Positions 28,557 to 53,940 of a stretch of DNA of 64,000 nt are shown one piece after another; position 1 is the first letter of the stretch, and each line of letters opens with the position of its first letter. Location of the stretch: the IMG/VR virus record IMGVR_UViG_3300046513_000217. One strand, 5' to 3'. The notes under the pieces were generated by a model. The model ran no database searches and had not been told where the DNA came from. It was given only the letters and a program-made list of their open reading frames with translations. A program made the translations under genes and the position numbers. The stretch is from an uncultured virus (IMG/VR IMGVR_UViG_3300046513_000217). Its lineage: Duplodnaviria; Heunggongvirae; Uroviricota; Caudoviricetes.

Positions 28557-28874
28557 TCAGAAAGGCGCGTTGTTCACTTCGTTGGATTGGCGCTGCTCAG
28601 AGGCAGCGCGGAAGGCAGCCGAGGTGGCTGCGTAGGTCGGCGACTGGCGGATCCATTCGTCCTCGTAGGACTTCACGAACACCTGCTGCGCCTGCTCGAT
28701 GAAGAAGCGAGCTGCTGCTTCACCCATCCTCGCGACCGGCTCACCGGCAACGAGCATGTCGAACTGGATGGGGTGCTTCTTGCCGTTATCCTCTTCGAGC
28801 CGGGCGGCGCGGAAGGTGATCAGACCCTGCTCCACGTTGGCGAGCGGAACGGCTTTCATTCGGGAGATGGTCAT
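28557..28874 (-). CDS. Hypothetical protein
   Basis: ATGA-coupled ORF. Confidence 0.5.
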   Translation of the reverse strand: MTISRMKAVPLANVEQGLITFRAARLEEDNGKKHPIQFDMLVAGEPVARMGEAAARFFIEQAQQVFVKSYEDEWIRQSPTYAATSAAFRAASEQRQSNEVNNAPF

Positions 28875-29503
28875 GCGGCCTCTGCTTCTTCTGCGGGGTG
28901 GTTGTCGTTGGCGAACTTGTTGGTCTCGTTGCCCCAGGCGTCCCAGCCGGGCCGCTGCACGCGGGCGAAGATGTCGGCCTTCGGATATGGCCCAGCCATC
29001 TTTGCTGCCTCGACGTAGCCCTGCTCGGGCTTGCGCGAGTGCTCGCGGCGCGGCTCAAGGATCGCGGAGCGGATGTTGCGGGCGTGGATGCGCGGCTTGC
29101 CGATCTTCCCGATGAGGAAGGGCTCATGGCAGTTGCGCAGGACGTAGCCCGTGCCGAAGGTCGGACGGCTGTTGTCCTTGACCATCTTCACCCAGACGCC
29201 CTGGGTGACGTAGGTGACGTCCCACTTGTCGAAGCAGGCGCGAGCGGCGTCGTACATGGGAGCGGTGGCGTAGAGCCAAACCCACATGCCGTCGTCGTGC
29301 GCGAGACGCTCGACATCGAGATCGAAGATGTCGTCAAGCGTCATGCAGTCGTAGTGCTGCTCTGCCGACTTGCCCTTGCCGGCGTCGGAGTAGGTCTTGA
29401 ACGACCACGGCGGGTCGATCTTCGCGAGCCCGTAGTGGTTCTCCTTCAGCGGAGCGAGGTTGAACTCCGGGGCGGGCATGATGGGGAAGGGGGAGATTTG
29501 CAT
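28871..29503 (-). CDS. MT-A70 family adenine methyltransferase
   Basis: DPPW motif, HYDCM, W.K, R.CHE, REHSRKP, FAR..RPGWDAWGN. Confidence 0.9.
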   Translation of the reverse strand: MQISPFPIMPAPEFNLAPLKENHYGLAKIDPPWSFKTYSDAGKGKSAEQHYDCMTLDDIFDLDVERLAHDDGMWVWLYATAPMYDAARACFDKWDVTYVTQGVWVKMVKDNSRPTFGTGYVLRNCHEPFLIGKIGKPRIHARNIRSAILEPRREHSRKPEQGYVEAAKMAGPYPKADIFARVQRPGWDAWGNETNKFANDNHPAEEAEAA

Positions 29504-29694
29504 TCAAGCAAACCTCCGGGCATGCCAAGGCGAGCCCTGGCTCTCGATGGCCCTGATCTGGTACATGATGATCCCTGAGCCGCGGCTCTCGGTCAGCTCG
29601 ACCGCAGCGACGCTGTCCTTCTCCAGGATCTCGATCACTCTGCGCTTCGTGGCGCACATGTTCCGGCGCTTGAAGCGCTTCAGCAGTCTCAGCA

Positions 29695-30000
29695 TCAACC
29701 CAACCCCAACTTTCCGCGCCACTCTTTCGCCTCGGCCAACAGCTCCGGCTTGATCACGACCTCGCTCGGCGTCGCCATAATCGCTTGCACCAGCAGGGCG
29801 TCCGGAAGGATCGACATGCAGGGCTGTTTCTTGTCGTCCCGCTTGCACCCGGGCTCCGTCAGCTTCTCGCGGACGGTGAACATCTCGCGCTCAGGGCCGA
29901 AGCGCTCGATCAGGCCGGCCATGTTCAGCCGACCCTCCCGATCGCACTTCGCGCACTTCACGCGGACGTAGGGCAGAGGCCACTCAGCGAGCTTCATCAC
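29695..30000 (-). CDS. Small zinc-ribbon protein
   Basis: VRVKCAKCDREGR...LIERFG. Confidence 0.6.
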   Translation of the reverse strand: MMKLAEWPLPYVRVKCAKCDREGRLNMAGLIERFGPEREMFTVREKLTEPGCKRDDKKQPCMSILPDALLVQAIMATPSEVVIKPELLAEAKEWRGKLGLG

Positions 30001-30467
30001 GCCTCCGCCGGCTTGGTGGTGTCGATCAGCTGACAGGTCACTCCAGCCTCCGCGTAGAGCGCCTGCGCGGCTTCGAGCGATGCCTTCCAGCGGACCCGGC
30101 GCTCCTCGTCCAGCTCAGGCGCAACGACGCGCTTGATGCCGGCCTGGATCACATGCAGGGCGCAACGCTCGCAGGTGAGGAACGGCCAGGTGTAGAGGGT
30201 GTAGCCGTGCAGCGGCTCGCGAGCCGTCAGGATGGCGTTGATCTCGCCATGGACCACGAGACCCATCTTTACGTCCCGGTCTTTCAGTCTGTCGGCTGTG
30301 TCGGCGATGCCACGCGGGAACCCGTTGTAGCCAAGCGAAGCAACCGTGCGGTCCGGGCGCGTGATGGCGGCGCCGACCTTCGTGCTCGGGTCTTTCGACG
30401 CAGCCGAGACCGACTGTGCGATGCCGAGGAAGTAGTGATCCCACCAGAGCTGCGAGCGCGCGTTCAT
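29997..30467 (-). CDS. dCMP deaminase
   Basis: SKDPSTKVGA, GYNGFPRG, HGEINA, CERC. Confidence 0.9.
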   Translation of the reverse strand: MNARSQLWWDHYFLGIAQSVSAASKDPSTKVGAAITRPDRTVASLGYNGFPRGIADTADRLKDRDVKMGLVVHGEINAILTAREPLHGYTLYTWPFLTCERCALHVIQAGIKRVVAPELDEERRVRWKASLEAAQALYAEAGVTCQLIDTTKPAEA

Positions 30468-30733
30468 GCAACCACCTTCAGGCTGAGGATGCAGTAGCCC
30501 GGCGACAGCACAGCGCTGGAGAAGGCGCACGGCACGGTGCGGTTGGTGATGTAGGTGACCTCCACTTCGATCTCCTCGCCCGTGTAGGCGCCGTTGATGT
30601 TGTCGTATTCCTGGAGGATCATGGTGTCCCCGACCTGAAAGCCTTCGTCCTCGCGCACGTCGTGCAGCTTGCGGCCGGCCTTGATCGCCTGGAAGAAATG
30701 GGTCCAGGACTTCTTGCGCCACTGCTGTCCCAT
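30464..30733 (-). CDS. ASCH/DUF3850 domain protein
   Basis: K.W..FFQAI..G.K..DVR....FQVGD...LQEY...YTG. Confidence 0.8.
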   Translation of the reverse strand: MGQQWRKKSWTHFFQAIKAGRKLHDVREDEGFQVGDTMILQEYDNINGAYTGEEIEVEVTYITNRTVPCAFSSAVLSPGYCILSLKVVA

Positions 30734-31410
30734 TACTTGGCGTCCTCCTGCGTGAAGTGATTGAAGCCGTCGCTGCCGACGAAGGGCTCGCACTTGGTGA
30801 CCTTGCCCTCCTTCACCGCGCGCTCGACCAAATCGAGCATCTCGGCGGTGATCGCGCCCTTATGGCCCTTGGCGCGGTAGCTCGACACAGCACGAGCCCG
30901 GAGCTGGATGCGGGGCGACAGCGTCTCGACCAAATCCATTGTCTGCGCGGGCTTCGCCGGCTCTGCGGGGCGCTCGACGTAGATCTTCTTCGGCAGCTGA
31001 GGCTGCGAAACTTCGAGACCACGGCGGCGCATGGCGTCTTCACGGCTCAACCCGAGACGGATCTCTTCGACCGTGCGACGGAAGCGCTTCGCCTTATCAT
31101 CGCCACGCTTGGTGGGTTGGGTGACGGACACCTTGGCGACGACCTTCGTTTCCGCCTGTGGTGTTGCAGCAAAGACACGAGCGGCCTTCGCCTGATCGAC
31201 GGTCAGGCCCAGCTCGATCTCCTTCGCGGTGCGCTTGAAGAAGTCCGTGCGCTTGGTTCCACGCCGAGCGACGACCGCTGTCGTTTGCGTCTCATTAACG
31301 ACTTGAGTTGCTGCCACGTCAGCAATGCTGACCTTTACTTCGGGCGCTCGGATCGCCTGGAAAACCGGCAAAACCCACTCAACTACTGATCTAAATACGT
31401 TTCGGAACAC
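30733..31410 (-). CDS. Hypothetical protein with two internal RT..EI.LGL repeats
   Basis: Long ORF with GGAAGGGA RBS; repeated peptide. Confidence 0.65.
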   Translation of the reverse strand: MFRNVFRSVVEWVLPVFQAIRAPEVKVSIADVAATQVVNETQTTAVVARRGTKRTDFFKRTAKEIELGLTVDQAKAARVFAATPQAETKVVAKVSVTQPTKRGDDKAKRFRRTVEEIRLGLSREDAMRRRGLEVSQPQLPKKIYVERPAEPAKPAQTMDLVETLSPRIQLRARAVSSYRAKGHKGAITAEMLDLVERAVKEGKVTKCEPFVGSDGFNHFTQEDAK

Positions 31411-31665
31411 CGGTCAAAATCCCTTCCCCGTTTGCATTCTTCGTTTGCATTAAAGCAAATCGAAGGGGAAAGCAAGAAGTCGTGGTTGTTCCTACCTGAA
31501 CAGGCGTTCAGTCCAAAATGCCCTGTGGAGAAGGATGTTTCAGTTTGGTTTATGCACATGCCGTAATTCTACGGAACCGAAGTCCCGCTTGCATTTTGAT
31601 GCAAACATCATTAGCAATAACCCGGAAGGCGCCCTGTAGGCCCCAAGGCAACGAGAACCATAAAA

Positions 31666-31974
31666 ATGAACACGTCGTTCCAGTACCGCTCCTACGCCGT
31701 CACCCATGATGGGAGCGCGTTCTGCGCAAAGCCGGAGGATGGGGAACCTCTGCAACTCAGATCGAAAAACCTGCTTCGGCTGACCCGTGCCATCGACACG
31801 ATGTGGAACGCTCTGGAAGGGAAGGTCACTGCGCCGTCGTGGCTGCTGGGCGATACCGATCTCGTGGATATCGATGCCGCAGCGGAAGCGATGCTGATCA
31901 TCAACCGCGCCAACAAGGTGCCGTCGTTCCCTTTGGAGCCGACGTTCGGACTGCCCGCCCGCGCCGCAGCCTGA
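31666..31974 (+). CDS. Hypothetical protein (soluble copy of duplicated domain)
   Basis: Counter-oriented ORF; similar to N-terminus of next gene. Confidence 0.7.
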   Translation: MNTSFQYRSYAVTHDGSAFCAKPEDGEPLQLRSKNLLRLTRAIDTMWNALEGKVTAPSWLLGDTDLVDIDAAAEAMLIINRANKVPSFPLEPTFGLPARAAA

Positions 31975-31982
31975 GAGGCGTC

Positions 31983-32588
31983 ATGACGACGATCTACCGG
32001 AACTACATGATCGCCCGCCTCGGCGACAAATTCGTTGCCCGGTCAACTGACGACGAGTGCCTGCTGGTCTCAACCAGCCAGCAGCGCCTCAACTCAGCGA
32101 TCGATGACTTGTGGGACTCGTTGGAGAGGGGCCGCGAGCCAGCCTGGTTCACCGGCAGCTCGGCCATCGATCTCGATACGTTTGGCCCGGAGTCGGTGCC
32201 GTCGAGCGCTGATCCTCCAGCGTCGGCCGTTCGGAAAGAGAAAACGGTCAGCTATTTGACGTTCGTCGTCACAGCTTTACTCGTCGCCGGCCCGCTTTCC
32301 TTCATTGTGGAGTGCTACTTCCCGAAAAGGGTGGACACCATGCTGACGTTGGGCGTTTGTGCTGTCGCCGTGGCGTTCGGTCGAAACTACGCTCTGCTGC
32401 TGACCGCCATAGCCGGCATCATGTACAATTTCTTCGTAGTTGAGCCTCTTTGGGATTTTTCGATCCCGACCTTAAGCGAGGCAGTCCTTTGGTGCTTTGA
32501 CGCTGTCGCAGCGCTCGGCATTCCGGAACTGCTCAAGCTGCGATGTCTGCAATCCCTACGGGGGAAAGACCGAACTCCATGCACCTGA
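31983..32588 (+). CDS. Duplicated domain fused to DUF4118/KdpD-like TM region
   Basis: GAGG RBS; AVAVAFG...ALL.AI.....YNFFVVEPL..F.I pattern; 3-4 hydrophobic helices. Confidence 0.7.
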   Translation: MTTIYRNYMIARLGDKFVARSTDDECLLVSTSQQRLNSAIDDLWDSLERGREPAWFTGSSAIDLDTFGPESVPSSADPPASAVRKEKTVSYLTFVVTALLVAGPLSFIVECYFPKRVDTMLTLGVCAVAVAFGRNYALLLTAIAGIMYNFFVVEPLWDFSIPTLSEAVLWCFDAVAALGIPELLKLRCLQSLRGKDRTPCT

Positions 32589-33186
32589 TCGTCATGTCAC
32601 TGGTGCCCGTTCCTCCCGGGCACCCCACCGCGAATTGCGGCCGACCTTCTCGGAGCATCTGTTCATTGCGTACGTGGCCGGCGAGCGCATCGTAGAGCTT
32701 GCCGTACTTGTTTCTTCTGACCGCCGCGCCCGGCCGCTCGATGTTGTCCCAGTCGGCCGGGTAGGGATCAAACGCAACACCGCGGTCCTCAGCCCACTGA
32801 CGGGCCATCCTATCAGCTCCCGAAGCCTCCCCCTCGACGATGCAGGTGATGCGCCGACGAGCATGGAGCGTGTCCAGGCCGCGATACAGCGTGGTCCTGT
32901 CGGCATAGTTGCGGCCACCGAACACGACCACGCGGAAGTTCGCCTTCAACAGGATCGAGTCGCCGTGGCAGCGGTGCGGAGCGCAGTAGCACTTCAGGTT
33001 CATGCCGGCGAGCGCCGGGACGTCCATGTCCGGCAGTTGCTCGCAGTCGAACTGATTGCACACCTGGTCGCGGTCGCCGTGCGCCCCGATGATGAACCGG
33101 TTGCCATAGGGTGAGCCCCGGCCGATGTAGATCGCATCAAGCGGAGCATCGCCGTGGTGGATGTTGAAGACTCGCGGCCCAGCCAT
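32533..33186 (-). CDS. DUF4326 + YspA/SLOG-like (DUF2493) fusion
   Basis: IYIGRGSPYGN.F, L.C.CAP..CHGD; RVVVFGGRNY, GEASGAD, RN..ML, PGG.GT.DM. Confidence 0.8.
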   Translation of the reverse strand: MAGPRVFNIHHGDAPLDAIYIGRGSPYGNRFIIGAHGDRDQVCNQFDCEQLPDMDVPALAGMNLKCYCAPHRCHGDSILLKANFRVVVFGGRNYADRTTLYRGLDTLHARRRITCIVEGEASGADRMARQWAEDRGVAFDPYPADWDNIERPGAAVRRNKYGKLYDALAGHVRNEQMLREGRPQFAVGCPGGTGTSDMTIRCMEFGLSPVGIADIAA

Positions 33187-33256
33187 CACCACATCCCCGT
33201 CACTGAAACGAACGTCACGAAGATGCTCAGCGGCAAGATCCAATACAGAAGGTCCA

Positions 33257-33553
33257 TCATCGCTTCATGTCGCAGGCGTGGCTGACGCCGTTCAACTCGA
33301 AGTCGGCGAAGCCCTGGGTGGCCGTGCAGAAGTCGAACCCGACGCCATCCTTCTCGGCGTGCCAACCATACCGACCGCAGTCCTCTATGACCTTGATGCT
33401 GTAGGTCACGCCCTTCCAAGTCAGGGTGTTCGTCGTCTCGTCGATCTTTACGGGCAGCCTTTGGCCCTTCTCCTTGCACATGTAGGTGTAGGTAGGGGCT
33501 GCGTTAGCCTGGGTGACGCCAAGGGCGAGGGTGATCAGTAGAATTTTCTTCAT
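33257..33553 (-). CDS. Small secreted protein
   Basis: Signal peptide MKKILLITLALGVTQANA; four Cys. Confidence 0.6.
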   Translation of the reverse strand: MKKILLITLALGVTQANAAPTYTYMCKEKGQRLPVKIDETTNTLTWKGVTYSIKVIEDCGRYGWHAEKDGVGFDFCTATQGFADFELNGVSHACDMKR

Positions 33554-33555
33554 CG

Positions 33556-35049: not shown

Positions 35050-35107
35050 CGCTTCGTCCTTGATTGGGGGAGTGGAGCCCGCCGCCGACGCGGCGAGCCC
35101 CAACGCT

Positions 35108-35662: not shown

Positions 35663-35890
35663 TACCCCACGAAAACCCCCCGTGGAATAAGGGGAACGAA
35701 ACGGGAAACCGCGGTCTGAAACGGTTCAAAAAAGTCAATAAAATCAATAGAGACCTAGCAGAGGCCCACGTTCGGGACGCAGGGGTCGCAGGTTCGAATC
35801 CTGCCACTCCGACCAAGAATATCAGATACTTAGCGATTTCCATTTCTTCAACCCCACGAAATACCCCACGAAGAATAGCCGCCCCCCGTA
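35663..35890. mobile_element. attP site: tRNA core flanked by arm-type repeats and an IHF-like site
   Basis: ACCCCACGAA at 35664, 35851 and 35863; TATCAGATACTTA (35820-35832) fits WATCARNNNNTTR; adjacent to integrase 3' end. Confidence 0.8.
35769..35815 (+). tRNA. 3' half of tRNA-Pro(CGG), att core; not a complete tRNA
   Basis: CGTTCGGGACG anticodon arm, GCAGGTTCGAATCCTGC T-arm, ends in CCA; no D-arm or 5' acceptor strand upstream. Confidence 0.85.
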
Positions 35891-35891
35891 T

Positions 35892-37109
35892 TTAGGCTGC
35901 GGCCTTCTTCTTGACGGTCTTCTTCGAAATCTTGTCGACAGCGTCGGCCATGTAGTCCGGATGATGGTGGCCGTAGTTGCGCTCCAGCACCTCGACGCTC
36001 ATGCCAAGGTAGCCAGCGGCGGTATAGAGGTTGGCGCCCTGCTGCATTAGCCAGGTCGCAGCCGTGTGCCGCAGCGTGTGCGGCGTGACGTTGCCGCCGG
36101 AAGCCACAGTGGTGTCGACCTCGGCTCCCTTGATCACCGTCCTGAACGCCTTCTTGACGCTCTGGATGGGCTTTCCATTCCACTCGACGAAGTGCTCCTT
36201 GGCGATGCCAACGCGCACCCAGCGCCGCATGTGGGCCAGCAACCCGGGCGGAATCGGAGCGGGCGGCTGCCGCTTGTTCGTCGCCTTCTTGCCGACCGGT
36301 TTGCGGTAGAACAGGCCGCGCTCCAGGTCGACGAAGGCCTTGCCGACCGCCCGCGTCGTGGCCGCAGCCGCCAGGGAACCTGCTCGGGTTCCGGTGTAGC
36401 AGCCCATCAGCATGAAGCGGGCCACATGCCGGAGCGGCCGGCGCCCGGTAATGACCTTCTCACCCTTGTGCGGCCCGACATGGATGGTCTGCACCTCACG
36501 GTACCGGTAGGCGTACCAGATCGCAGCGGCGGCCTCGTCTCGCGTAAGCCACCGCTCGCGAGCCTCGCCCTTGTCCGGAAGCCAGACGCTGACGTTGCCG
36601 CGGTGCAGGTTCTCCTTTGCGTGGTGATTGATCGCGGCCCGGAACGCTTCCAGGTCGCGGCGGGCGCCGCCCTGGCCGCCGCCGTTCTTCTGGCGATGGG
36701 AGACGTAGCCCTTGCACAGTTTCGTGTTCACCTCGGCCAGCATCTTGCCGCTGAAGTACGCATCGAGCCGGGAGATGCGCTGCTCAAACTCGCGCTCGTC
36801 GGCGTCCTTCTCTTCGTCTGGCTTGTCGTGGTCGATCTTGTGGTCGAGGTAGACCAGCAACACCGACGCGCAGGTAATCGCCTTGATGTCGTCGGTGGTG
36901 TGCGCCTCGTGCTGATGCTTCGTGATGTAGTCGCTTAGCGCTTGTTTCGCTTCGATTGGAGGCTGCGACTGAGACGGGCTCGTAGCAACTCCTGTGGAGA
37001 CCTCGGTGGCTCCATCTCGGATGACCCAGACGGCTCGGGTGTCGAGCTTGCCTGCCTTGTAACGAGCTTTCCTCCGGGCGAGGTGCGGGCCTTGGCCGGT
37101 ACGCGACAT
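35892..37109 (-). CDS. int: Tyrosine integrase
   Basis: YTGTR, HTLRHTAATW, LGMS...Y catalytic motifs. Confidence 0.93.
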   Translation of the reverse strand: MSRTGQGPHLARRKARYKAGKLDTRAVWVIRDGATEVSTGVATSPSQSQPPIEAKQALSDYITKHQHEAHTTDDIKAITCASVLLVYLDHKIDHDKPDEEKDADEREFEQRISRLDAYFSGKMLAEVNTKLCKGYVSHRQKNGGGQGGARRDLEAFRAAINHHAKENLHRGNVSVWLPDKGEARERWLTRDEAAAAIWYAYRYREVQTIHVGPHKGEKVITGRRPLRHVARFMLMGCYTGTRAGSLAAAATTRAVGKAFVDLERGLFYRKPVGKKATNKRQPPAPIPPGLLAHMRRWVRVGIAKEHFVEWNGKPIQSVKKAFRTVIKGAEVDTTVASGGNVTPHTLRHTAATWLMQQGANLYTAAGYLGMSVEVLERNYGHHHPDYMADAVDKISKKTVKKKAAA

Positions 37110-37345
37110 AACTTCCTCATTTCATCAATATCGGCGAGCGTTGTGTACTGCTTGCCTGCGATCACTTCAATGTTGAGACGACCCTTCGCCGCCTCTCTTC
37201 TAAGTCCACGCAGCCCAATCGATCCGTCCGGGAAGGCGATGCGAGCAGCGAACTCCAGTCGCATCGGCGTGTCTCGATAGATGACGCCGATCTCAGTCTG
37301 GATTCCTCCAGACTGGATCTTATTGTCGTTCGCGTGGTCAGGCAT
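36935..37345 (-). CDS. Excisionase-like protein
   Basis: FPDGS...GLRREA.KGRL....IAGK.YTT; immediately upstream of int. Confidence 0.7.
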   Translation of the reverse strand: MPDHANDNKIQSGGIQTEIGVIYRDTPMRLEFAARIAFPDGSIGLRGLRREAAKGRLNIEVIAGKQYTTLADIDEMRKLCRVPAKARTSPGGKLVTRQASSTPEPSGSSEMEPPRSPQELLRARLSRSLQSKRNKR

Positions 37346-39668: not shown

Positions 39669-40553
39669 TTACTTCGGCTGAACGAGCTTCGCGATGTCGG
39701 GCTTGGCGTTGGCGAAGCCGTCAACGATCTTCTCGAAGTCGTTGCTGTGAGCCGCGATCCAGTCGCGGTTGGCAACGAACACGGCGTCGACCTGGATGGT
39801 GTCGACCGACTTCGAACCACCGAACATGCCGGTCGGCTGGATACCCTTGTAGGTGTTGGCCGGGATCTCGCCGTAGGTGTAGACGGGCTGACCGCGGCTA
39901 TCCTTGGCGTTCTTCGTCATGTCGCGGTCGTCGGTGGCGACCAGGGCAACGCTGTCGGCGTACTTCGGCGCTTCGTTCTTGAGGAACGATGCATTCAAAG
40001 CCGTGACGATCAGGGCGCACTGCACTTCCGAACCGTCGTTGACGGCGCTCAGGGCGAGGGTGCCGGCCAGGTCGGACGTGCGAACCTTGCCGTAGCGCGC
40101 CTTGTCGGCTGCAACGAACGCGGCCCACGTCGTGTTGGCGCCCGAACCTTCGGGACCGATGGCGACCGTGAAGTTGGAGTTCAGGTCGACCATGCGGGCG
40201 GAGGTGTAGGCCTTGCGGTTGCAGATCAGGTTGGCCTGCTCCTGGTAGAGCACGCCGGCACGCTGGAGCGCCGAGATCGCCTTGGCGTTGCGGCTGGAGT
40301 AAACGAGCAGCGCGTCGGACTGGACGAACGCGCCGTCGCACTCGCCAGCCGTGACCTTGTCGAGGTTGTCCAGCGAACCCTTGGTCTCGACGACCTCGAC
40401 CGCCGGAGCGTGACGCTTCAGGTGCTGACCAGCAGCGTAGTAGTTGAGCTTCTGATTACCGGTGCAGAGACGGAACTTGTCCGCAGCCTGCGCCGAGGTG
40501 GCCGCCGAGAGGCCGATGGTTGCTGCGGCGATCAACAGAAAGAGCTTCTTCAT
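39669..40553 (-). CDS. TAXI-family periplasmic solute-binding protein
   Basis: Signal peptide; TG....NYY..G, ETKGSLDNL, AFVQSD, LY.E, AIGPEGSG. Confidence 0.8.
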   Translation of the reverse strand: MKKLFLLIAAATIGLSAATSAQAADKFRLCTGNQKLNYYAAGQHLKRHAPAVEVVETKGSLDNLDKVTAGECDGAFVQSDALLVYSSRNAKAISALQRAGVLYQEQANLICNRKAYTSARMVDLNSNFTVAIGPEGSGANTTWAAFVAADKARYGKVRTSDLAGTLALSAVNDGSEVQCALIVTALNASFLKNEAPKYADSVALVATDDRDMTKNAKDSRGQPVYTYGEIPANTYKGIQPTGMFGGSKSVDTIQVDAVFVANRDWIAAHSNDFEKIVDGFANAKPDIAKLVQPK

Positions 40554-40723
40554 GTAGTTCTCCTTGCCTGCATTTGCAGGCGTTGCATTCAAACAAACGC
40601 GAGGGGACTAAAAAAACCAGCGGGAGATGGGCTTCCGCATGGTGATCTTGATGGCGGCGGTGACGATCAGATAGAGACCGCACGCATCGAGAAGGTGGTT
40701 GGCGAGAAAGACACCGTACATGG

Positions 40724-41113
40724 CTAAGCCTCGATGGCGTTGGGCAGGCCCGTTGCCGCGTTGTAGGTCTGGTCTGCGGTGCGGGCGAGCCGGGTCGGGT
40801 CTTCGCCGTTCATCAGCAGACGCTTGATCTCCTGGACCAGGAACGCCACGCCGACGACGATGTTCGGGATGTCGCCGCCGTAGCTGCGGAAGCCGCTCCA
40901 GTCCTTCGGATAGCAGTCCGGGATTTCCTTGAAGGCCCACTCCATATCGAAGCGGTGATCAAAGGTCGCTTCCAGCTGGGCGAAACCGGCTGCGAAGAGC
41001 TGGCCCCTGGTTACGTCGGCTCTCTCGTTCTGCTGGCCCCACATCTTGTTCTGAAGGCCGATCTCGCCAAGTACCAGTTCGAGGGCCTTCGTCTCTGCTT
41101 CAGTTGCGTTCAA
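40724..41113 (-). CDS. Conserved phage hypothetical protein
   Basis: ...A.LVQEI.RL C-terminal pattern; AGGAG RBS with TTG start. Confidence 0.55.
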   Translation of the reverse strand: MNATEAETKALELVLGEIGLQNKMWGQQNERADVTRGQLFAAGFAQLEATFDHRFDMEWAFKEIPDCYPKDWSGFRSYGGDIPNIVVGVAFLVQEIKRLLMNGEDPTRLARTADQTYNAATGLPNAIEA

Positions 41114-41183
41114 GGTCAGTCTCCTTTTGCAGTGGTGTATTTGCATTCAAGCGCACGAGAAAGCAAGCGAAAAGTTCGCTCGC

Positions 41184-41597
41184 TCAGTACTTCTTTCCAC
41201 CCGCCTTTGCGCGGTTCTCCAGCTTGTGGTCCGGCCGGGTCGCGTTGACCAAAGCCTTCGCCACGGCCGGCGCGCCCAGGTCGTAGCCCATGGCACCTGC
41301 CAAGTCGCCGACGCGGAACAGAACGTCGACCAGCTCAACGGCAATGCCGGGAAACTGGGGCAGCTTGTCGTCCATGGCGTCCGTGCGATGCGCTTCGAGT
41401 GCCTCGGAAGCTTCGCGCATGACGAGGGCCAACTTGACCGGAACCATCAGAGGGTTCTTGCGCAGATCTTCTCCGGTCACTGGGTCGATCCACCAATGGG
41501 CGGCCATCTTGTGGGTGATGCGGACGAGGGAGTTGATGGATCTCTGCAGCTCCTCGACGTCCGCTTGGTTGAAGTTGTCGTTCGCTACTACGGTCAT
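41184..41597 (-). CDS. MazG-like NTP pyrophosphohydrolase
   Basis: KLALV..EASEALEA.R...VELVD...R..D. Confidence 0.75.
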   Translation of the reverse strand: MTVVANDNFNQADVEELQRSINSLVRITHKMAAHWWIDPVTGEDLRKNPLMVPVKLALVMREASEALEAHRTDAMDDKLPQFPGIAVELVDVLFRVGDLAGAMGYDLGAPAVAKALVNATRPDHKLENRAKAGGKKY

Positions 41598-41923
41598 GAT
41601 GCCTCCTTAAATCGGAACTCGTCAGCCAGGTCCTGGAACATCCGGACCACCTCTTGCTGATTACGTCCAGTCTGGTCGTTCCAATCGAATGGATGCTTGC
41701 CCAGCTGGGTCTTTATCAATGGGACGAAGCGCGCATACGCGCCTCGGTCGTCTTCGCCAGCTGCTCGGCGGATCGCGCCCTCAATGTCGAAGGTGCGAGC
41801 CTCACGGCTGAATACGGGGACCGGCTTACCAAGCCCATCCCGTGCGCAGGTCTTCTGCGTCCACCGTCCGCGCTTTGAAAACAGCAACAGGCACCGTTCC
41901 ACAATTTCGAGTTCGGAGAACAT
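41594..41923 (-). CDS. Hypothetical protein (DUF6197-like)
   Basis: WTQ...ARD, ..EGAI, WND..GR...EV. Confidence 0.55.
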   Translation of the reverse strand: MFSELEIVERCLLLFSKRGRWTQKTCARDGLGKPVPVFSREARTFDIEGAIRRAAGEDDRGAYARFVPLIKTQLGKHPFDWNDQTGRNQQEVVRMFQDLADEFRFKEAS

Positions 41924-42206
41924 TGCGCTTGCTGAACTCCCATTCGAATGATGCGATACGGCTGATGTCGCGGCGGCCGAGCCTCATGAGGTCGAACGCC
42001 AGGGTGTGGAGGGGGACTCTCGACGGGAGGGAGACGAAATCAGGCGGGGTGTAGACCGCCTGATCCGTTTCCTTGTCGATGATCCAGAAGCGCTTGTGCC
42101 TCTTGGCTACGAAGAGGTGCATCAGTGACCTGCAATGCAGCGGGCGACCCCGTAGGCGCAGATGCACCAAACGAACAGGATCGCCAACCACCTCAGCTGG
42201 TCTGCA

Positions 42207-42878
42207 TCAGGCAGCCTCAGCAACGACCTCTTCCTTCTTGAAGAAGCGGACGCCGAAGCCGATGAGCAGGACCAGAGCCGTTCCCGAAGCGGCGGCCAGG
42301 TAGTGGCTCGCGTAGGGCGCTGCCCACGGGTCAGCAGCGATGATGCCGCCAGCAACCCAGCCCAGCAGAGCCGCGCCGGCCCAGGTCAAGATCGGGAATC
42401 GGCCGATGACCGCTGAGATGATGGCGCTGCCGGCGATCACGAGCGGGATCGACAGGAGCACGCCGAGTGCCATCAACAGGGTTGACCCATTCGACAGGGC
42501 GGCGATGGCCATGACGTTGTCGAGGCTCATGCTGGCGTCCGCGACCGCGATGGTCCAGATCGCTGCGCCCAGACTGATCACCTTCTTGGCGGGACCGGCT
42601 TCGTCGTCGCCACCCATGACCAGCTTGGCCGCGACCCAGAGCAGGAAGAGTCCGCCGATGATGCTCAGGGCAGGCACGCCCAGAAGGAAGGAGGCGAAGA
42701 ACGACATGATGACGCGCAGGCCGATGGCCGCCGCGGTGCCGCCGACGATGCCCCACTTCTGTTGGTTCTCCGGGAGCTGCCGGCTGACGAGGGCGATGAC
42801 GACCGCATTGTCGCCGGAGAGCAGAAGGTCGATCCACACGATGCCAAGCAGCGCGACCCAGAAGATATGGTCAAACAT
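42207..42878 (-). CDS. TerC/YjbE family membrane protein
   Basis: DLLLSGDNAVVIAL, AVADASMSLDNVMAIA. Confidence 0.9.
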   Translation of the reverse strand: MFDHIFWVALLGIVWIDLLLSGDNAVVIALVSRQLPENQQKWGIVGGTAAAIGLRVIMSFFASFLLGVPALSIIGGLFLLWVAAKLVMGGDDEAGPAKKVISLGAAIWTIAVADASMSLDNVMAIAALSNGSTLLMALGVLLSIPLVIAGSAIISAVIGRFPILTWAGAALLGWVAGGIIAADPWAAPYASHYLAAASGTALVLLIGFGVRFFKKEEVVAEAA

Positions 42879-42941
42879 TGTAGACTCCAAAAAATGAAAG
42901 AGGGTCGGGCGGCCCGAAGACCGCCCGTGGTTCTCGTTCGC

Positions 42942-43379
42942 TTAGGCGGCGAGCAGCTTGTCGGCGTCGACGTTGATCAGCTTGCCGATCTCGACGAGCA
43001 CAACCTTCTCCTCGGGTCCGATGCCGCCCTGGTCGGCGGTGTCAGCCGCGATCAGGAACACGTCCTGGCGCACGCCGATGTCGCGGGTCTGGAGCGCCTC
43101 GATTGCACGCTTGTTCTCCATGCGGCCGGCACGGGACTTGGCGCGGGTGAGGGCGGCGTTCAGAGCCTCCTCGATCTGCGAGCCGCTGTAGGAGGCGGAC
43201 ACGATCGGGTTGGCCTGCATGCCGGAGATGGCAGCATCGACCTCGGAGTCGTCGATCGAACCGTCAGCCGCGGTCACGTTGGCAGCCGCCGCAGCAACAC
43301 CAGCGAGGAACACCTTGTCGCCCGTGTAGCTGACGAGGGACTTGTTGGCCTGGTCGAGGAATTTCTTGAAGAAGCTCAT
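42942..43379 (-). CDS. TerB family protein
   Basis: AADGSIDDSE...AD.GGI.PEE..VL..I. Confidence 0.8.
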   Translation of the reverse strand: MSFFKKFLDQANKSLVSYTGDKVFLAGVAAAAANVTAADGSIDDSEVDAAISGMQANPIVSASYSGSQIEEALNAALTRAKSRAGRMENKRAIEALQTRDIGVRQDVFLIAADTADQGGIGPEEKVVLVEIGKLINVDADKLLAA

Positions 43380-47731: not shown

Positions 47732-47734
47732 TCG

Positions 47735-48019: not shown

Positions 48020-48020
48020 C

Positions 48021-48359: not shown

Positions 48360-48391
48360 ATTGTCTTCTCCTTTTTGCATTCAAACAAACG

Positions 48392-48613
48392 TCACGGCAT
48401 GGCTCGGATGCGACGTCTGATCTGTTGTCGGGCGTAGTTGCTCGAATATGGAGTCCGAGGGGATTGGGCGACTGGCACCGACATCCACTTGCCTCGGACA
48501 CGAAACTCAATGAGGTGGTGCTTCCGGTCGTGGCCGAATGTGAAGGCCTCGATTTCTCCGCTCGCCTTCAGCTCCTCAGCTACCTTTTTGACCTCGCGAA
48601 CGTGCCTTTCCAT
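48392..48613 (-). CDS. Small basic protein, possibly HicA-like fold
   Basis: KHH..F......V...SP.....N...Q.RR pattern. Confidence 0.4.
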   Translation of the reverse strand: MERHVREVKKVAEELKASGEIEAFTFGHDRKHHLIEFRVRGKWMSVPVAQSPRTPYSSNYARQQIRRRIRAMP

Positions 48614-49064
48614 CTTTTCCCCGCTTCTCGAACGGCCGACTGGGCCACTGTTTTTTCCGTCGAGGCGGCGCGGGAGCCTCCACATCGGGGTCCACCTTCG
48701 CCAGCATTCGACGTCTGAACTCTTCGGTCTGTCTGGCGACCCGCTTGGTGTGGGCGATCTCTTGCACGTCACCGCGGGTCAGCTCCTCACTGGAGCCGAA
48801 CGTCTTCTTCGCGTGACAGTCTGCGTGTTTGGCAAAAATGAACTCCGGATCGTTGGACCTCGGATTCGTGTCCTTGATGTCGGCATCCCAGCAGCGGAGC
48901 TGGATCGCCGGGACGTGATCGAATTGCGTGTCGTCCAGCTTGCCCAGTCGCTCGCCACATTTGGCGCACAGACTGTGCTGTCTGATCACCACCTCCAGCT
49001 TCACGGTGACCGGGATGGCCTTCCGGAAGCCTGGAGGTGGGGCGAGGTCGAGGACGCTGGACAT
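48576..49064 (-). CDS. HNH endonuclease-like protein
   Basis: CAKCG...FDH.P...N......H..CH..KT. Confidence 0.7.
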   Translation of the reverse strand: MSSVLDLAPPPGFRKAIPVTVKLEVVIRQHSLCAKCGERLGKLDDTQFDHVPAIQLRCWDADIKDTNPRSNDPEFIFAKHADCHAKKTFGSSEELTRGDVQEIAHTKRVARQTEEFRRRMLAKVDPDVEAPAPPRRKKQWPSRPFEKRGKDGKARSRGQKGS

Positions 49065-49276
49065 TTGCTTTTCCTATTTGCATTCGAGCAAAAGGTCAAG
49101 CAAATGTTTAAGGCTCAGGCAGAGGGAGAGGTACTCTCCCAAGACAACCGTCAGGCGTGGGTAGCCCTTCGATCCAGCCTTTATCGCGAGCGCAGCCGTA
49201 ACTTTTTGGGCAGCCCTCGGGCGGGCAGTGCTTGCTGCCATCCCTATGGCAGAGCCAGATGGTCCAGTCGTCTGCT

Positions 49277-49720
49277 TCAGCCATCGCGGCGATCCGGATC
49301 GAGATAGAGCCGATACTCCAGACCTTCGCGATGCCACTGACCATCGCACACGCCGATGACCTGGTTGGCGGCCAGGAAGTCCTCGTCGGTCATGTCGTCG
49401 TATTCGTACAGCTCCCGCAGTTCCTTGGCGGGAACGAGGTCATTGGACCAGATCAGCTCCGTATTTCCGACCTTGATCTTGGCAAGGCCCGTGATCGAGT
49501 TCTCGATCGTGGAGATGGCGTGGCGCAGGTCTGCCATCTCCGACAGGAGCAGCGCCGCGTTGTTCGGGCCACCGCTAGGGTGAGCGCTCTCGAAGCCAAA
49601 CCGGCCGATCTTGCCATTGGCGCGCAGGACTCTGCCGATGACCTCGACAACCTCGCCGGCTTCCTCGCCGAGGCGATCGACCATGCCCTGGGGCGTGGTG
49701 GGTAGCAGCTTCGGGTTCAT
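49277..49720 (-). CDS. MazG-like domain protein
   Basis: LGEEAGEV...R.G......N...L..E.ADL. Confidence 0.6.
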   Translation of the reverse strand: MNPKLLPTTPQGMVDRLGEEAGEVVEVIGRVLRANGKIGRFGFESAHPSGGPNNAALLLSEMADLRHAISTIENSITGLAKIKVGNTELIWSNDLVPAKELRELYEYDDMTDEDFLAANQVIGVCDGQWHREGLEYRLYLDPDRRDG

Positions 49721-49949
49721 TCGTTCCTCATGGCGCGTTCGACCTGCTCTGGGGTCAGTTGCTTGAACAGGATGCAGATCGCGATCATCCGCTTGGCGTT
49801 CGCATAGAGCTTGATCTGCTCCGGCAGGAGATCGACATCGTAGAGCAGAGATGTCAGGGCCGGAGTGTCGTTGATCTGCTGACGGAAGGGCGCGATGACC
49901 GCGTCAACCGCGGCGGTTTCCTCGTCCGTGACGGTATAGTTGATGACCG

Positions 49950-50495
49950 TCATGCCCGTGCCACCTTCAGTGCGGTTTGGAGGGCTGCCTGGACGCGCCG
50001 GTCGATCTCCTCGTTGGTGATGGCGCTGATCTTGCGGTTGATGCGGTCGTCGATGTTGGCCATGGCCTTCTCATTGACGCGCTCGAAGGCGGCTTGGGCT
50101 GCCGCTGCGACCATCTGCTCGCCCGTGATCGCGTATTCCTTCATCAGGGCACTGATCTGCGTGGATACGGCGTCGTCCAGCCTCTTCTTTGCCTCGGGCT
50201 TGAGGGTGTAGGAGTCGCCGCGCCAAACGTCCTTCTTGACGTTGATCAGGGCAGTCTCGAACATCTGCTCGAAGCGCTTCTTGAAGGTCTCGTTCTCCTT
50301 GATCATGTCGACCAGGGAGTTGGCCTCGCCGCCGAACACGGCCTCGACGAGCTTCAGCACGTCCTTGCTGATGTATTTCTCGAACAGGCGGCGGCAGATC
50401 TCGGCGATGACAGCCTGTTGGAGATCCACCTTGGCTTCGTCGGAGGCGAACAGTGCAGAGACGGCACCGGCATCAAGTTTCAATGCGATAGTCAT
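49950..50495 (-). CDS. Hypothetical helical protein
   Basis: Coupled ORF. Confidence 0.55.
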   Translation of the reverse strand: MTIALKLDAGAVSALFASDEAKVDLQQAVIAEICRRLFEKYISKDVLKLVEAVFGGEANSLVDMIKENETFKKRFEQMFETALINVKKDVWRGDSYTLKPEAKKRLDDAVSTQISALMKEYAITGEQMVAAAAQAAFERVNEKAMANIDDRINRKISAITNEEIDRRVQAALQTALKVARA

Positions 50496-50751
50496 CAGAT
50501 CCAGATCCTTCGGAAGCGAGTTTGATAAGGTTGTTGGCCACGAGCCAGGCCAGCAGGTTGAATGCCGACATCCAGCGGATGCGAGTGCCGTCCTCTTTGA
50601 CCTGGAGGAGCTTGCCTCGCGGAAACTTCGGTGGTGGCTTGAAGCCCTTTGGCAAGGTCAGGACGGTGCCGGCCTCCTTCGCGGGGAGGCCAAGCTTCTT
50701 GGCTGCGTTCAGCGAATTGACGCACAGCTGGGCGAGATCGGCTGGGTTCAT
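50473..50751 (-). CDS. Hypothetical protein
   Basis: Coupled ORF. Confidence 0.5.
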   Translation of the reverse strand: MNPADLAQLCVNSLNAAKKLGLPAKEAGTVLTLPKGFKPPPKFPRGKLLQVKEDGTRIRWMSAFNLLAWLVANNLIKLASEGSGSDDYRIET

Positions 50752-51197
50752 GCGGCTTCCTGCTGCGGAAATCGCGCCCTCAGTTCAGCCTTCACACGAT
50801 CTATGACGCGGCCGGAGAAGTTGTCCGGGTGGCGCGGATCGGTGATGATGCCGTCCGTCAGCTCATTGTCCTCCGCCTCGGTGTAGGGGTTGTTCGCATG
50901 CCACATGCCGTAGTAGTTCCGGATCGACATCGGGGAGAACAGCAAGCAGCCGGCGTGCTCCGGCACCTCCACCTTCGGAGCGAACGGGATCACCCGGTCT
51001 CCGAGCGGCGGGAAGCGCCAGCTCCACGGATCGAGCCAGCGCTGCACAGCGACCGGGTCGGCGCTGACGCGCTTGAGCACGTCGGCGACGACACCGTCCT
51101 CGTCCAGATACTTGCCGAACCACGGATCTTGCTGCGGCTTCTCGTCCTTTCCGACGCCTCGCAGCAGGTTCGAAAGCTTCTTCAGGATTTCCATCAC
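50748..51197 (-). CDS. Hypothetical protein
   Basis: M.IRN.YG.W...NP...HPD..S..VI pattern; coupled ORF. Confidence 0.55.
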   Translation of the reverse strand: MMEILKKLSNLLRGVGKDEKPQQDPWFGKYLDEDGVVADVLKRVSADPVAVQRWLDPWSWRFPPLGDRVIPFAPKVEVPEHAGCLLFSPMSIRNYYGMWHANNPYTEAEDNELTDGIITDPRHPDNFSGRVIDRVKAELRARFPQQEAA

Positions 51198-51712
51198 GCA
51201 ACCTCTTGGTCGGAACGCTCGTCGTTGTCGTTGGCGGCGTCTTTGTAGTTGGATTTGGCCCGAGCCTCTTTCATCAGCTCTTCGAGATCGAGCCCGGGGA
51301 TGACGGCACTGGCAATGATCTCCATCGCCGTATCGAAGTAGACCTTGAACTCCTCTTCCGGCATCGCATCGAACGCCGTGGAGGAGGGGAAGTAGATGAA
51401 CTCGCCTGCCATGGTCACGACCGGCTCGGTGACATTGCAGGCCAGCAGCAGCGATTTGTGGAGCGCGTCCTCGGTAGAGAACTTGTCGGTGTTATCGACG
51501 ACGATCCTCAGAGCCACTCGGTACAGGCGGTGCCTCGGACCACTGCGGGGCTGTGCAAGCTGGATGCGGAGGGGAACGCCCTCCGGAAACCGCTCCAGCA
51601 TTTCGACGTCGTAGGGAGCGTGCGGCACCAGCACAGGAGAGCTGAAGCCATCCACGAACGTCTTTCTGAAGAGCATCCACATGCTCTTGGACTTGTTACT
51701 TGCCTTGCTCAT
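51194..51712 (-). CDS. DUF1367/NinB-like recombination accessory protein
   Basis: PRS...HRLY, P.S.AFDAM.EEEF..YF. Confidence 0.65.
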   Translation of the reverse strand: MSKASNKSKSMWMLFRKTFVDGFSSPVLVPHAPYDVEMLERFPEGVPLRIQLAQPRSGPRHRLYRVALRIVVDNTDKFSTEDALHKSLLLACNVTEPVVTMAGEFIYFPSSTAFDAMPEEEFKVYFDTAMEIIASAVIPGLDLEELMKEARAKSNYKDAANDNDERSDQEVA

Positions 51713-52108
51713 TGCGTCCTCAGATCAGCGGGAGTTGCCGCGCCTTGTGCTTGCGCGGGGCCGGCGGCGGCGGTGCGTCCTTGGCAATCTCACCAAGATC
51801 CCGGATGTGGTCGCGGCAGGCGTTGGCCAGCGCGTCGATCTGCTCCTGGGACAGCTCGTACTTCTCCCGGTGGGCGGTCTCGTCCGACCACCAGGCACGA
51901 AGAGCGCTGGCGCTGCGCGCAGTCTTGATTGCGAACAGCGCCATCTGGCAGTAAGCCTCAGCTCGGGTCATGCCACTTGCCGAGAAATCTCGCCGCCTGC
52001 TCGTAGAAGGGCAACCAGCCACCTTGATGCACGGTGCTCTGGTTGGCCTTGAGCCAGTTGCGGTACAGCTTCTTGGCCAGCTGCACCGCCTTGTCGTCGT
52101 GCTTCGGA

Positions 52109-52957
52109 TTAGCCATTCGCGGCTTCCTTCGCCGGCTTGGACCAGCCGAGATCCTTCAGGCGCTGGGTAGCGAAGGCACGCAGCTCCGAGACCTCGTCCT
52201 TCGACATCTCAGCCATCAAGGCCTTCACGTCCTTGCTGTTCATGAAGTCCGTGACCTGCTTGATCTCCTTGCAGTTCCGCAGGTCGGTCTCGGCCTTGAT
52301 GATCTGGTCCTCGATGCGATTGCCGCCACGCTGCTCGCCGCCATCGCTGCGGTTGTCGTTGCTGGCCTGATCGCGGCGATCATCGCGGCGGTTGTCCTGA
52401 CGATCATCACGACGGTCGTCACGGTCGTCACGGTCGCCCCGGTCATCACGGCTATCGCCACGCGCCGGGCTCTTGAAGTCGTCAGCTTCCTCGGACGAGT
52501 AGGCGTCGCCGTGCAGATCGGCCAGCTTGAGGATGACGCGATCCTTCGCCCGCTTCTCGGCCATGGCGTACGGATAGGCAGCCTGGGAACCGCTGACGAT
52601 GTAGTTGCCGAAGCAGCCATCCTTCGGCTCCTTGATCGGCTTGTTCCAGTTGTTCTTCCTGCCGGTGTCGATCAGCTGGGTGATCTTGGCCTCGCCGATG
52701 GACCACTCCATCTTGTCACCGACGCTGCCGAACACGATGATCACAGCCTCGTCAGCCTCAGCGCGGATGATCTGCGGCTTGTCGTAGCGGATGCCCATCG
52801 CAGCACCGAGGCGCTCGACGTCCTTGTGCTTGACGACCGGAGTGCCCTGGACTTCCCAGATGGCATCCTTGTCGATGTCGACCTTGTGCTTGTCGAAGAC
52901 GTCGTAGATCTTGTCGAGCCGGGCGCGATTGTTCCCGTTGTTGTTCTGACGTGCCAT
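52109..52957 (-). CDS. Putative single-strand annealing protein with RD-rich linker
   Basis: WSIGEA...YPYAMAEKRAKDRVILKL..L.G..YS.EEADDF; adjacent to exonuclease. Confidence 0.65.
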   Translation of the reverse strand: MARQNNNGNNRARLDKIYDVFDKHKVDIDKDAIWEVQGTPVVKHKDVERLGAAMGIRYDKPQIIRAEADEAVIIVFGSVGDKMEWSIGEAKITQLIDTGRKNNWNKPIKEPKDGCFGNYIVSGSQAAYPYAMAEKRAKDRVILKLADLHGDAYSSEEADDFKSPARGDSRDDRGDRDDRDDRRDDRQDNRRDDRRDQASNDNRSDGGEQRGGNRIEDQIIKAETDLRNCKEIKQVTDFMNSKDVKALMAEMSKDEVSELRAFATQRLKDLGWSKPAKEAANG

Positions 52958-52968
52958 CGTGGCCTCCG

Positions 52969-53940
52969 TTATGCCGCTTCTTCAGCGGCGGGTTTCTCGT
53001 TGGTGTTGGCGGCTTCCGGCTTCTTGCGGGAGGCCCGGGGTTTCGGCGCAGGCTTCTCTTCCTCAACCGGCGGCGGCAGGTTCGCGGCGTCAGCCACGGC
53101 CTCCTTGATGGCCTCCTCGTCGAACTTGATCAGCTGCTTGCCGTCCTTCGACAGGTTGATCGCAACGCCCTTGCCGGCTGCCGACTTAGCGTCGGCCGGG
53201 AAGAGCTTCTTGATCGCCTTCTTCGCCTTCTCGTGCCTCTCGACAGACGGCTTCGTGCTGAGCAGCGTGAAGGCCAGATCGCACCACTCGTTGTTGGTGG
53301 TCATGTCGTGGATCTTGATGCGCTCGGCGATCGGGATCTCGATCTTCGGCGCGCCCGGCGTGCGGCCGGTGACGACGCAGTCCCAGAAGTCCTTCTCGGC
53401 TTCGAGCAGGGCGAGCTGGTAGAACAGGTCAGCCTCGACATCGAGAATGACGTGCTGAGCGGCGCCGGTCAGGATCGACAGGTATCCCTTCGGCAGATCC
53501 GTCACCATCATGTTGTGCTGGACCTGCGGGTAATACTTCTCGTACGCCTCCTGCTTGTTGAAGCCGAAGGGGAACATGAACTTGAACTCGACGATGGCGA
53601 TCGGGTCCGACTCCGGCGTCCGGCGCACCAAGCCGTCGAGCGTCGTGTGAGCCAGCTCCCAGGCGTAGTAGTGGACCTTCTTCTGCTCGTCGGTGACGTG
53701 CATATCCATCTCGTCCTCGAACAAGTCGGCGTTCAGAGGCTCGGTCAGGTTGCCAAGGTTGATCAGGATCACCTCGTCGAGGTTCTCCGGAACAGCTTCG
53801 CCGCGCTTCTCCAGCCACAGGCGCTCGATCGCGTCCTGGTCGCCGGACATGATGATCTTGGCGTCGGATCCGCCGATCGACTTCATACGGGCGGCGCGAG
53901 CCTCTTCGCTCATGCCGATGTGGCCAGTTCGCTTCCTCAT
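52969..53940 (-). CDS. YqaJ-like (lambda-exonuclease family) nuclease
   Basis: IGGSDA, LW.EK.G, G...EP, TLDG, EFK, Y.PQVQH.M.V. Confidence 0.85.
   Translation of the reverse strand: MRKRTGHIGMSEEARAARMKSIGGSDAKIIMSGDQDAIERLWLEKRGEAVPENLDEVILINLGNLTEPLNADLFEDEMDMHVTDEQKKVHYYAWELAHTTLDGLVRRTPESDPIAIVEFKFMFPFGFNKQEAYEKYYPQVQHNMMVTDLPKGYLSILTGAAQHVILDVEADLFYQLALLEAEKDFWDCVVTGRTPGAPKIEIPIAERIKIHDMTTNNEWCDLAFTLLSTKPSVERHEKAKKAIKKLFPADAKSAAGKGVAINLSKDGKQLIKFDEEAIKEAVADAANLPPPVEEEKPAPKPRASRKKPEAANTNEKPAAEEAA

Follow-up and report, generated by a model that had tools for sequence, protein, structure and literature searches.

Both conserved ends of a host transfer-messenger RNA (tmRNA) tag, i.e. the (A)NDN head and the terminal Ala-Ala (AA), appear from the sequence to have been written by a phage into the loose ends of many of its non-virion proteins, where they probably form a two-part, splittable signal for the adaptor SspB and for ClpX. 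The phage is the uncultured virus of IMG/VR record IMGVR_UViG_3300046513_000217, and the stretch analysed, hereafter the window, comprises bases 1-64000 of the 123,443-nt record (about half of the genome). A first-pass annotation of the window had proposed that early proteins carry SsrA (tmRNA) tag mimics acting as SspB/ClpXP degrons, an interpretation that is partly supported here. The three tails on which it relied are all present:

28871..29503, minus strand: MT-A70 family methyltransferase gene (Pfam PF05063, E 1e-23)
28871-28912, minus strand: methyltransferase tail, ANDNHPAEEAEAA before the stop, i.e. ANDN-x7-AA; the stop of the gene overlaps the next start (ATGA)
51194..51712, minus strand: NinB/Orf-like recombination mediator gene (PHROG phrog_319, E 1e-22; no Pfam match)
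51194-51238, minus strand: NinB-like tail, AANDNDERSDQEVA before the stop, i.e. AANDN-x7-VA; ANDN is residues 160-163, at the predicted SspB contact
52969..53940, minus strand: YqaJ-like exonuclease gene (Pfam PF09588, E 1e-12)
52969-53013, minus strand: YqaJ tail, AANTNEKPAAEEAA before the stop, i.e. AANTN-x7-AA, with ANTN in place of ANDN

These tails are the in-frame ends of long open reading frames (ORFs) and are gene-encoded, unlike the tmRNA tag, which is added in trans. The MT-A70 and YqaJ labels of the first-pass annotation agree with Pfam; its 'DUF1367-like' protein is assigned by PHROG to NinB/Orf, and its 'excisionase' and 'cupin' match no named family.

We infer that the phage is temperate and that its host is Bradyrhizobium. 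The nearest named relative is Bradyrhizobium phage BDU-MI-1 (82 and 73% identity for the methyltransferase and the YqaJ protein, respectively), which has a match for 133 of the 205 phage proteins called with our own codon-usage script; relatives of the YqaJ protein occur in three Bradyrhizobium genomes; and a likely attP core, located downstream of the integrase gene, matches a tRNA-Pro gene in one of these three genomes:

35769..35818, plus strand: likely attP core; all 50 of its 50 nt match a Bradyrhizobium tRNA-Pro(CGG) gene over the 3' part and flank (L335, by blastn and ARAGORN)
35892..37109, minus strand: tyrosine integrase gene (Pfam PF00589); the product ends KKKAAA and has no NDN

The major capsid gene is split over both record ends, and the record is therefore circularly permuted.

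In the three Bradyrhizobium genomes with related prophages, alpha-tmRNA specifies the tag (A)ANDNFAPVAQAA (3/3), the two-piece tmRNA gene is directly followed by sspB (3/3; L124-L129), and clpX is present (3/3). The phage motif consists of the head (ANDN) and the end (AA) of this tag with a different middle, the exact head being found in the methyltransferase and NinB-like tails and ANTN in the YqaJ tail. The proposed mimicry is supported in that ANDN equals the head that is invariant in the host genus; the relevant tag is that of Bradyrhizobium, not that of Caulobacter (AANDNFAEEFAVAA), in which, according to PMC9393093, a tagged protein decays more slowly without sspB. Neither alpha-tmRNA nor SspB was found in the whole phage genome, and no tmRNA or tRNA was found within the window; seven tRNA genes are located outside it, in the other half of the record at 91755-120948.

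The NDN part of the motif is real and well above chance. NDN lies within the last 25 residues of 7/205 phage proteins, compared with 0.37 expected from 1000 whole-protein shuffles (maximum 3), 0.54 expected from tail-only shuffles (maximum 4; 0/2000 reach 7), and 0/351 host-genus genes (400 kb of Bradyrhizobium DNA). ANDN occurs six times in the 205 proteins against 0.32 expected (300 shuffles, maximum 3). Terminal AA is found in 23/205 proteins, against 2.7 expected from the internal AA frequency; the host-genus proteome was adopted as a fairer null, under which the effect shrinks (23/351 host-genus genes, 6.6%; p=0.057). Among non-virion proteins of at least 120 amino acids, terminal AA is present in 18/67 phage proteins and 21/306 host proteins (p=1.4e-5), and in the virion block (1-21950) it is present in 0/25. 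Pseudomonas and Bordetella phage regions contain it in 6/73 and 8/77 genes, respectively (8-10%). Terminal AA taken alone is weak evidence because it is common in the host and in these phages. The AA endings listed in the first-pass annotation (integrase, A1-like, nucleoside deoxyribosyltransferase-like, TerB, TerC, radical SAM, the 54879-55514 product, and SLOG fusion) are all present, and by themselves lend little support. Gene content suggests that the marked proteins form an early class.

These counts bear on a reading without function, in which NDN would be a by-product of disordered tails rich in Asp and Asn, and EAA or EVA endings would result, in a GC-rich genome, from overlap with ribosome-binding sites and from ATGA stop-start overlaps. 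A -4 overlap is found at three of the five genes with EAA endings, GAGG stands just upstream of the next start in the methyltransferase and NinB-like tails, the host background of terminal AA is appreciable, and many internal NDNs lie in low-complexity linkers. The tail-only shuffles and the absence or rarity of permuted motifs argue against this reading. Genes lacking a close downstream neighbour also end AA more often (15/72) than genes that have one (7/88), and among such neighbourless genes of at least 120 codons it is present in 13/36 phage and 20/262 host genes (p=1.5e-5), so the ribosome-binding-site account fails as a general explanation. The caveat that EAA endings may arise from such a site applies to the methyltransferase and NinB-like ends, and not to the YqaJ end. 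For the motif as a class, the absence of function is already disfavoured, and we regard it as very improbable.

The motif is selected and acts at the protein level, as indicated by strict frame dependence and synonymous codon variation. Forty-four distinct ANDN codon strings were collected from 63 related loci and this genome; called genes contain 41 of them in the reading frame, and the other three are at the beginning of small ORFs that were not called. No string is out of frame or antisense, and the third codon positions vary synonymously. The frame dependence and codon variation speak against the tails being relics of tmRNA gene DNA, captured for example by integration at ssrA, or a repeated DNA or RNA element. 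It is true that the 12-nt string encoding ANDN in the host tmRNA recurs at three phage sites, and that real tmRNA genes are present on many viral contigs (56/121 matches, see below). However, the string is also composed of the commonest codons, no DNA identity between the phage and the host tmRNA was found beyond the 12-nt strings, the phage has no tmRNA, and its att site is tRNA-Pro. Recent capture is largely refuted, and ancient capture would leave the retention of the motif unexplained; an origin of this kind is the most remote of the explanations considered. In two genomes of the host genus, 44 codon matches to ANDN (40 regions) are mostly internal or non-coding; the tail-like ones, with AA or similar ends, belong to two NinB-like orthologues in prophages and to some short ORFs. 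One short chromosomal ORF common to two Bradyrhizobium genomes (L284, G003:C4:355384; L303, G002:C1:662397) ends AAC, its ANDN being placed 21 residues ahead of the stop; it is a candidate host SspB-binding small protein.

Homologue retention and turnover counts mark AA as the stable part and NDN as a mobile add-on. Terminal AA is retained in 16/17 AA-ending proteins with a BDU-MI-1 match despite diverged tails, and NDN is retained in the BDU-MI-1 orthologues of the helicase, rIIA, NinB-like, and 65-amino-acid proteins. After de-duplication (identity limits of >38, >60, and >50% for the NinB-like, methyltransferase, and YqaJ proteins, respectively), 14 of 23 NinB-like homologues have a long tail with NDN and nine a short tail ending EAA; NDN is present in six of 14 methyltransferase rows and absent from eight; and all 24 distinct YqaJ homologues end AA, with NDN in six, NSN or NTN in 16, and neither in two. 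On the trees, with changes counted without direction, the NDN tail changed at least three times in the NinB-like proteins, with at least two forced changes in the methyltransferase; these counts do not support one common origin for it. When the methyltransferase search was widened, terminal AA was present in 43 of the 45 best homologues, and NDN occurs in the last 20 residues of eight and in the first 20 of nine (in 8/9 as NDNF, NDNY, or ANDNF); all 17 of these end AA. Terminal NDN was found in none of the next 75 homologues. The integrase, which had been counted among the tagged proteins, lacks NDN, and of its five homologues at 51-54% identity one ends AA, one VA, one IA, and two with none of these.

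Among the 1147 distinct proteins of the 63 loci, which fall into 342 families, NDN was found 40 times within the last 25 residues (eight families), 16 times near the start (five families), and 66 times internally (11 families). AA or VA ends were found in six of the eight families with C-terminal NDN and in 45 of the 334 without (p=1.9e-4). The distance from NDN to the protein end ranges from 7 to 22 residues across relatives, which does not bear out the fixed, tag-like spacing assumed earlier, and a copy of the whole tag is likewise not what is seen: the signal looks modular and splittable, with a free middle and with NDN also at N-termini and in linkers. The N-terminal ANDNs noted in the first-pass annotation (36935-37345 and 41184-41597) are present. 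Further carriers in the window and in the rest of the record are as follows:

57022..57048, minus strand: tail RNDNFVPA of a 116-amino-acid protein (gene 57022-57372); NDN retained in close homologues; no Pfam or PHROG match
37322..37333, minus strand: N-terminal ANDN (residues 5-8) of ORF 36935-37345, an excisionase by position only, with no family match
41571..41585, minus strand: N-terminal ANDNF of the MazG-like pyrophosphatase (41184-41597; PHROG phrog_5658), a five-residue match to the host tag head
52352..52360, minus strand: internal NDN in a low-complexity linker of the 282-amino-acid protein 52109-52957, which has no terminal AA
58228..58236, minus strand: internal NDN at the linker start of the single-stranded DNA-binding protein (SSB; 57934-58593; Pfam PF00436), which ends DDDIPF, without AA
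66524-68029, outside the window: UvrD helicase, VNDN-x7-AA
71796-73922, outside the window: rIIA, ANDN-x15-AA
82277-82474, outside the window: 65-amino-acid protein, NNDNQKAA
95524-96210, outside the window: endonuclease-like protein with an internal ANDN and an ANDD tail

The motif is thus not confined to methylation, recombination, and integration, as had been suggested, but extends to the UvrD helicase, rIIA, and small proteins. ORF 36935-37345 overlaps the integrase start by 175 nt; an MPxxANDN start is also found on different 105-amino-acid ORFs upstream of a 361-codon frame in four related loci (L042, L053, L057, and L058), and in ORFs starting in this way the N-terminal motif stays while the remainder of the gene varies. 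The MazG-like pyrophosphatase, which lacks a C-terminal AA, has ANDNF or VNDNF in 7/10 distinct homologue rows. Most homologues of the 282-amino-acid protein end EAANG, where the next gene has its ribosome-binding site and start (52109-52135, minus strand), and this overlap is the likely explanation of the EAA string.

A scan of IMG/VR for ANDN-x7-AA-stop gave ~1200 matches (estimated from 7/64 parts), whereas shifting the spacer out of frame gave 11 and permuting the motif gave 13; the control scans were filtered differently from the sampled matches, and raw ~1200 versus 11 overstates the case. The 121 sampled matches comprised 56 tmRNA genes (ARAGORN), 37 with <60 open codons (mostly tag-like), and 28 at long-frame ends, one of which (L183) resembles tmRNA too; extrapolation gives ~280 protein tails, some twentyfold the control counts. 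Sixteen of the 28 were classified: four portals, one head morphogenesis protein, three methyltransferases, three phrog_704 nucleases, one Sak4-like protein, one of an unknown family, and three without a match. The portal and head-morphogenesis proteins (L132, L133, L136, L147, and L157) are virion assembly proteins, so in other phages the signal is not limited to early proteins. An acidic residue is present in the last five positions of 13/27 viral protein tails and 0/41 tmRNA tags; the three tails of the window end EAEAA, DQEVA, and AEEAA, which differ from the hydrophobic, non-acidic tag end. Many viral contigs (L130-L250), mostly of 36-50% GC, hold their own tmRNA genes with ANDN-type tags. 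The motif is patchy and not general to alphaproteobacterial phages: in a panel of eight further named phages, of which four infect alphaproteobacteria, three other proteobacteria, and one an unstated host (three covered partially and one nearly whole), no protein had NDN in its last 25 residues. In Pseudomonas phage Dolphis (L343, 13705-14838, minus strand), ANDE, the gammaproteobacterial tag head, occurs near a C-terminus without terminal AA, as a single case.

A complex of Bradyrhizobium SspB (residues 1-135, two copies) and the last 32 residues of the NinB-like protein was predicted with a score of 0.64, compared with 0.02 for the best of three controls; the score mark is reached by 51/78 solved and 2/108 mismatched pairs of a calibration set that this job does not resemble. 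The runs share at least 56% of contacts, and the partner has a pLDDT (predicted local distance difference test) of at least 50. Confident contacts involve NinB-like residues 156-165, with the lowest errors on ANDN residues (160-162). Close relatives of this SspB have already been solved (2nys, 2qas, and 2qaz), one of them as a complex with an ssrA peptide. Because such relatives exist, the model is best read as indicating likeness rather than binding. The predicted contact nevertheless tells against a further explanation, namely that the motif is a real protein signal read by a host or phage protein other than SspB, its likeness to the tag head being incidental; so do the exact match to the host tag head, the coupling with AA, and the lack of an SspB of the phage's own. 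Such another reader would accommodate the conserved departures from the tag (NTN/NSN in YqaJ, no Phe), the occurrence of NDN at any position, and the absence of C-terminal NDN from the four other alphaproteobacterial phages, and we consider it improbable.

In the proposed mechanism, NDN would dock on the host adaptor SspB, as predicted by the model, and ClpXP would receive the terminal AA and degrade the protein. According to PMC9963277, the E. coli tag is bound at the same time by SspB, through its first seven residues, and by ClpX, through its last four, and PMC8512704 describes the SspB and ClpX parts as modular, tolerating an intervening linker, with the SspB part enabling decay from weak ends. 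Terminal AA is necessary but not sufficient in E. coli, strong ends being neutral and hydrophobic (PMC10862746). The acidic AA ends of the phage proteins are thus proposed to be weak ClpX degrons that rely on SspB via NDN. Gain or loss of NDN would tune the decay rate on top of the conserved AA, and N-terminal NDN with C-terminal AA would constitute a split tag. The likely purpose would be to clear DNA-processing enzymes (methyltransferase, exonuclease, NinB-like mediator, and helicase) once transcription stops, which would matter to a temperate phage on its way into lysogeny. The handover to ClpX, the shortened half-life, and this purpose are inferred. Overall, the SspB/ClpXP degron idea of the first-pass annotation gains from the presence of sspB and clpX in the three Bradyrhizobium genomes, a protein-level motif, and the modelled contact on SspB, and is corrected as to the tag, spacing, weight of AA, modularity, and scope.

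Several observations weigh against a two-part SspB and ClpX signal. Besides the commonness of terminal AA and the insufficiency of AA in E. coli, the E-A/V-A endings of the methyltransferase and NinB-like genes overlap the likely ribosome-binding site of the next gene. The Phe that follows ANDN in both the Bradyrhizobium and Caulobacter tags is absent from all three tails, and most YqaJ homologues (16/24) depart from NDN. NDN appears dispensable in view of its absence from 9/23 NinB-like and 8/14 methyltransferase homologues, and it is missing from the tails of the four other alphaproteobacterial phages sampled. Internal sites account for 66/122 occurrences, many in D/N/R/G-rich low-complexity linkers, and some carriers, such as SSB and the MazG-like protein, have no terminal AA. 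None of the 45 best methyltransferase homologues has NDN at both ends, but this exclusion does not reach significance (P=0.14), and the SspB model may reflect memory of the solved relatives.

The main rival is that the motif acts as a decoy or shield: NDN would bind SspB, abundant phage proteins would occupy the adaptor, and AA would be a separate, ordinary ClpX degron, with slower turnover of host tmRNA-tagged and SspB-dependent substrates or shielding of the phage protein from other proteases. NDN in proteins without AA (SSB, the 52109-52957 protein, and the MazG-like protein with ANDNF) is in line with this, as are the findings in E. coli that the SspB part alone binds without decay (PMC8512704) and that SspB blocks ClpAP (PMC9963277). 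C-terminal NDN is, however, tied to AA/VA ends in the family survey, all 17 NDN-bearing methyltransferase homologues end AA, and a decoy would presumably not need to be spread over many low-abundance enzymes; we consider this rival unlikely. A broader reading, which we put forward tentatively as a possibility, is that in rhizobial phages (A)NDN has evolved into a free-moving short linear motif that can link any phage protein to host SspB through its N-terminus, a linker, or its tail, giving adaptor-gated decay with an acidic AA end and titration of SspB without AA, so that the phage proteome would be wired to the ribosome-rescue load of the host. Under stress, tmRNA-tagged host proteins would then compete for SspB, stabilising the phage DNA enzymes and shifting the lysis-lysogeny balance. 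If this broader reading is true, SspB-alpha gains its first large set of natural gene-encoded clients.

Returning to the two-part signal, the phage tails can be compared with several known systems. With the native alphaproteobacterial tmRNA tag they share the ANDN head and AA end of the Bradyrhizobium and Caulobacter tags (the latter from PMC9393093), whereas they are gene-encoded rather than added on stalled ribosomes, have a free middle, usually lack Phe, often have acidic ends, and can carry NDN and AA at opposite ends of the protein. In mycobacteriophage BPs and in cluster P, ssrA-like tags are carried by the repressor and the integrase (PMC4557955 and PMC9635641); these likewise are temperate phages that hard-code a C-terminal ssrA-like degron, on the integrase among others, and exploit host proteolysis. 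Their tags are on two switch proteins, with attP splitting the repressor gene; in the present phage attP copies a tRNA-Pro gene and is located downstream of the integrase, the putative repressor (helix-turn-helix regulator, 62278-62979) ends IFIKA and is untagged, and AA is present on about a quarter of the larger non-virion proteins, together with the adaptor-binding half. An integration-dependent immunity switch of the BPs type was rejected, attP not being inside the repressor gene and the helix-turn-helix regulator being 26 kb away; a 65-codon ORF over attP is not called as a gene and ends ASFY. Native terminal Ala-Ala ClpXP degrons occur in Caulobacter CtrA and in E. coli ssrA-like substrates such as Mu repressor. 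They share the gene-encoded terminal AA, as found in 23/351 host-genus genes, whereas the sampled host proteins have no NDN near the C-terminus. Engineered SspB-dependent degrons (AANDENY, a linker, and a weak end such as DAS) also combine an adaptor site and a weak end at variable distance (PMC8512704); the phage version would be natural and suited to the alphaproteobacterial adaptor, with a presumed dependence on SspB. No paper on phage mimicry of the SspB-binding half was returned by a full-text literature search that most subscription papers lay outside. Phage ssrA-like (ClpX-end) degrons are established in mycobacteriophages; the signal of the present phage would resemble a splittable form of the alphaproteobacterial tag that is written into the genes themselves.

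If the two-part signal is real, phages copy the adaptor-binding half of the tag too, over many proteins, and host SspB serves as a timer for phage DNA metabolism; an sspB mutant host should then alter phage growth or lysogeny. The dozens of natural variants (tail, N-terminal, or internal; NDN versus NSN/NTN; present or absent) would be of use for mapping SspB-alpha specificity and for building tunable degrons for rhizobia.

The AA-only endings in the window are the following:

22075-24069, plus strand: A1-like protein, ends SFAA
24100-24564, plus strand: nucleoside deoxyribosyltransferase-like protein, ends LLAA
31666-31974, plus strand: 102-amino-acid protein, ends RAAA
32533-33186, minus strand: DUF4326-SLOG fusion, ends DIAA; AA not retained in BDU-MI-1
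42207-42878, minus strand: TerC, ends AEAA
42942-43379, minus strand: TerB-like protein, ends LLAA
50748..51194, minus strand: 148-amino-acid protein, ends QEAA; stop overlaps the next start
54879-55514, minus strand: 211-amino-acid protein, ends RGAA
55504-56457, minus strand: radical SAM protein, ends IDAA

TerC and the TerB-like protein, both without a BDU-MI-1 match, belong to a cluster at 39669-43379 on the minus strand that also encodes an NMT1-like solute-binding protein and the MazG-like pyrophosphatase.

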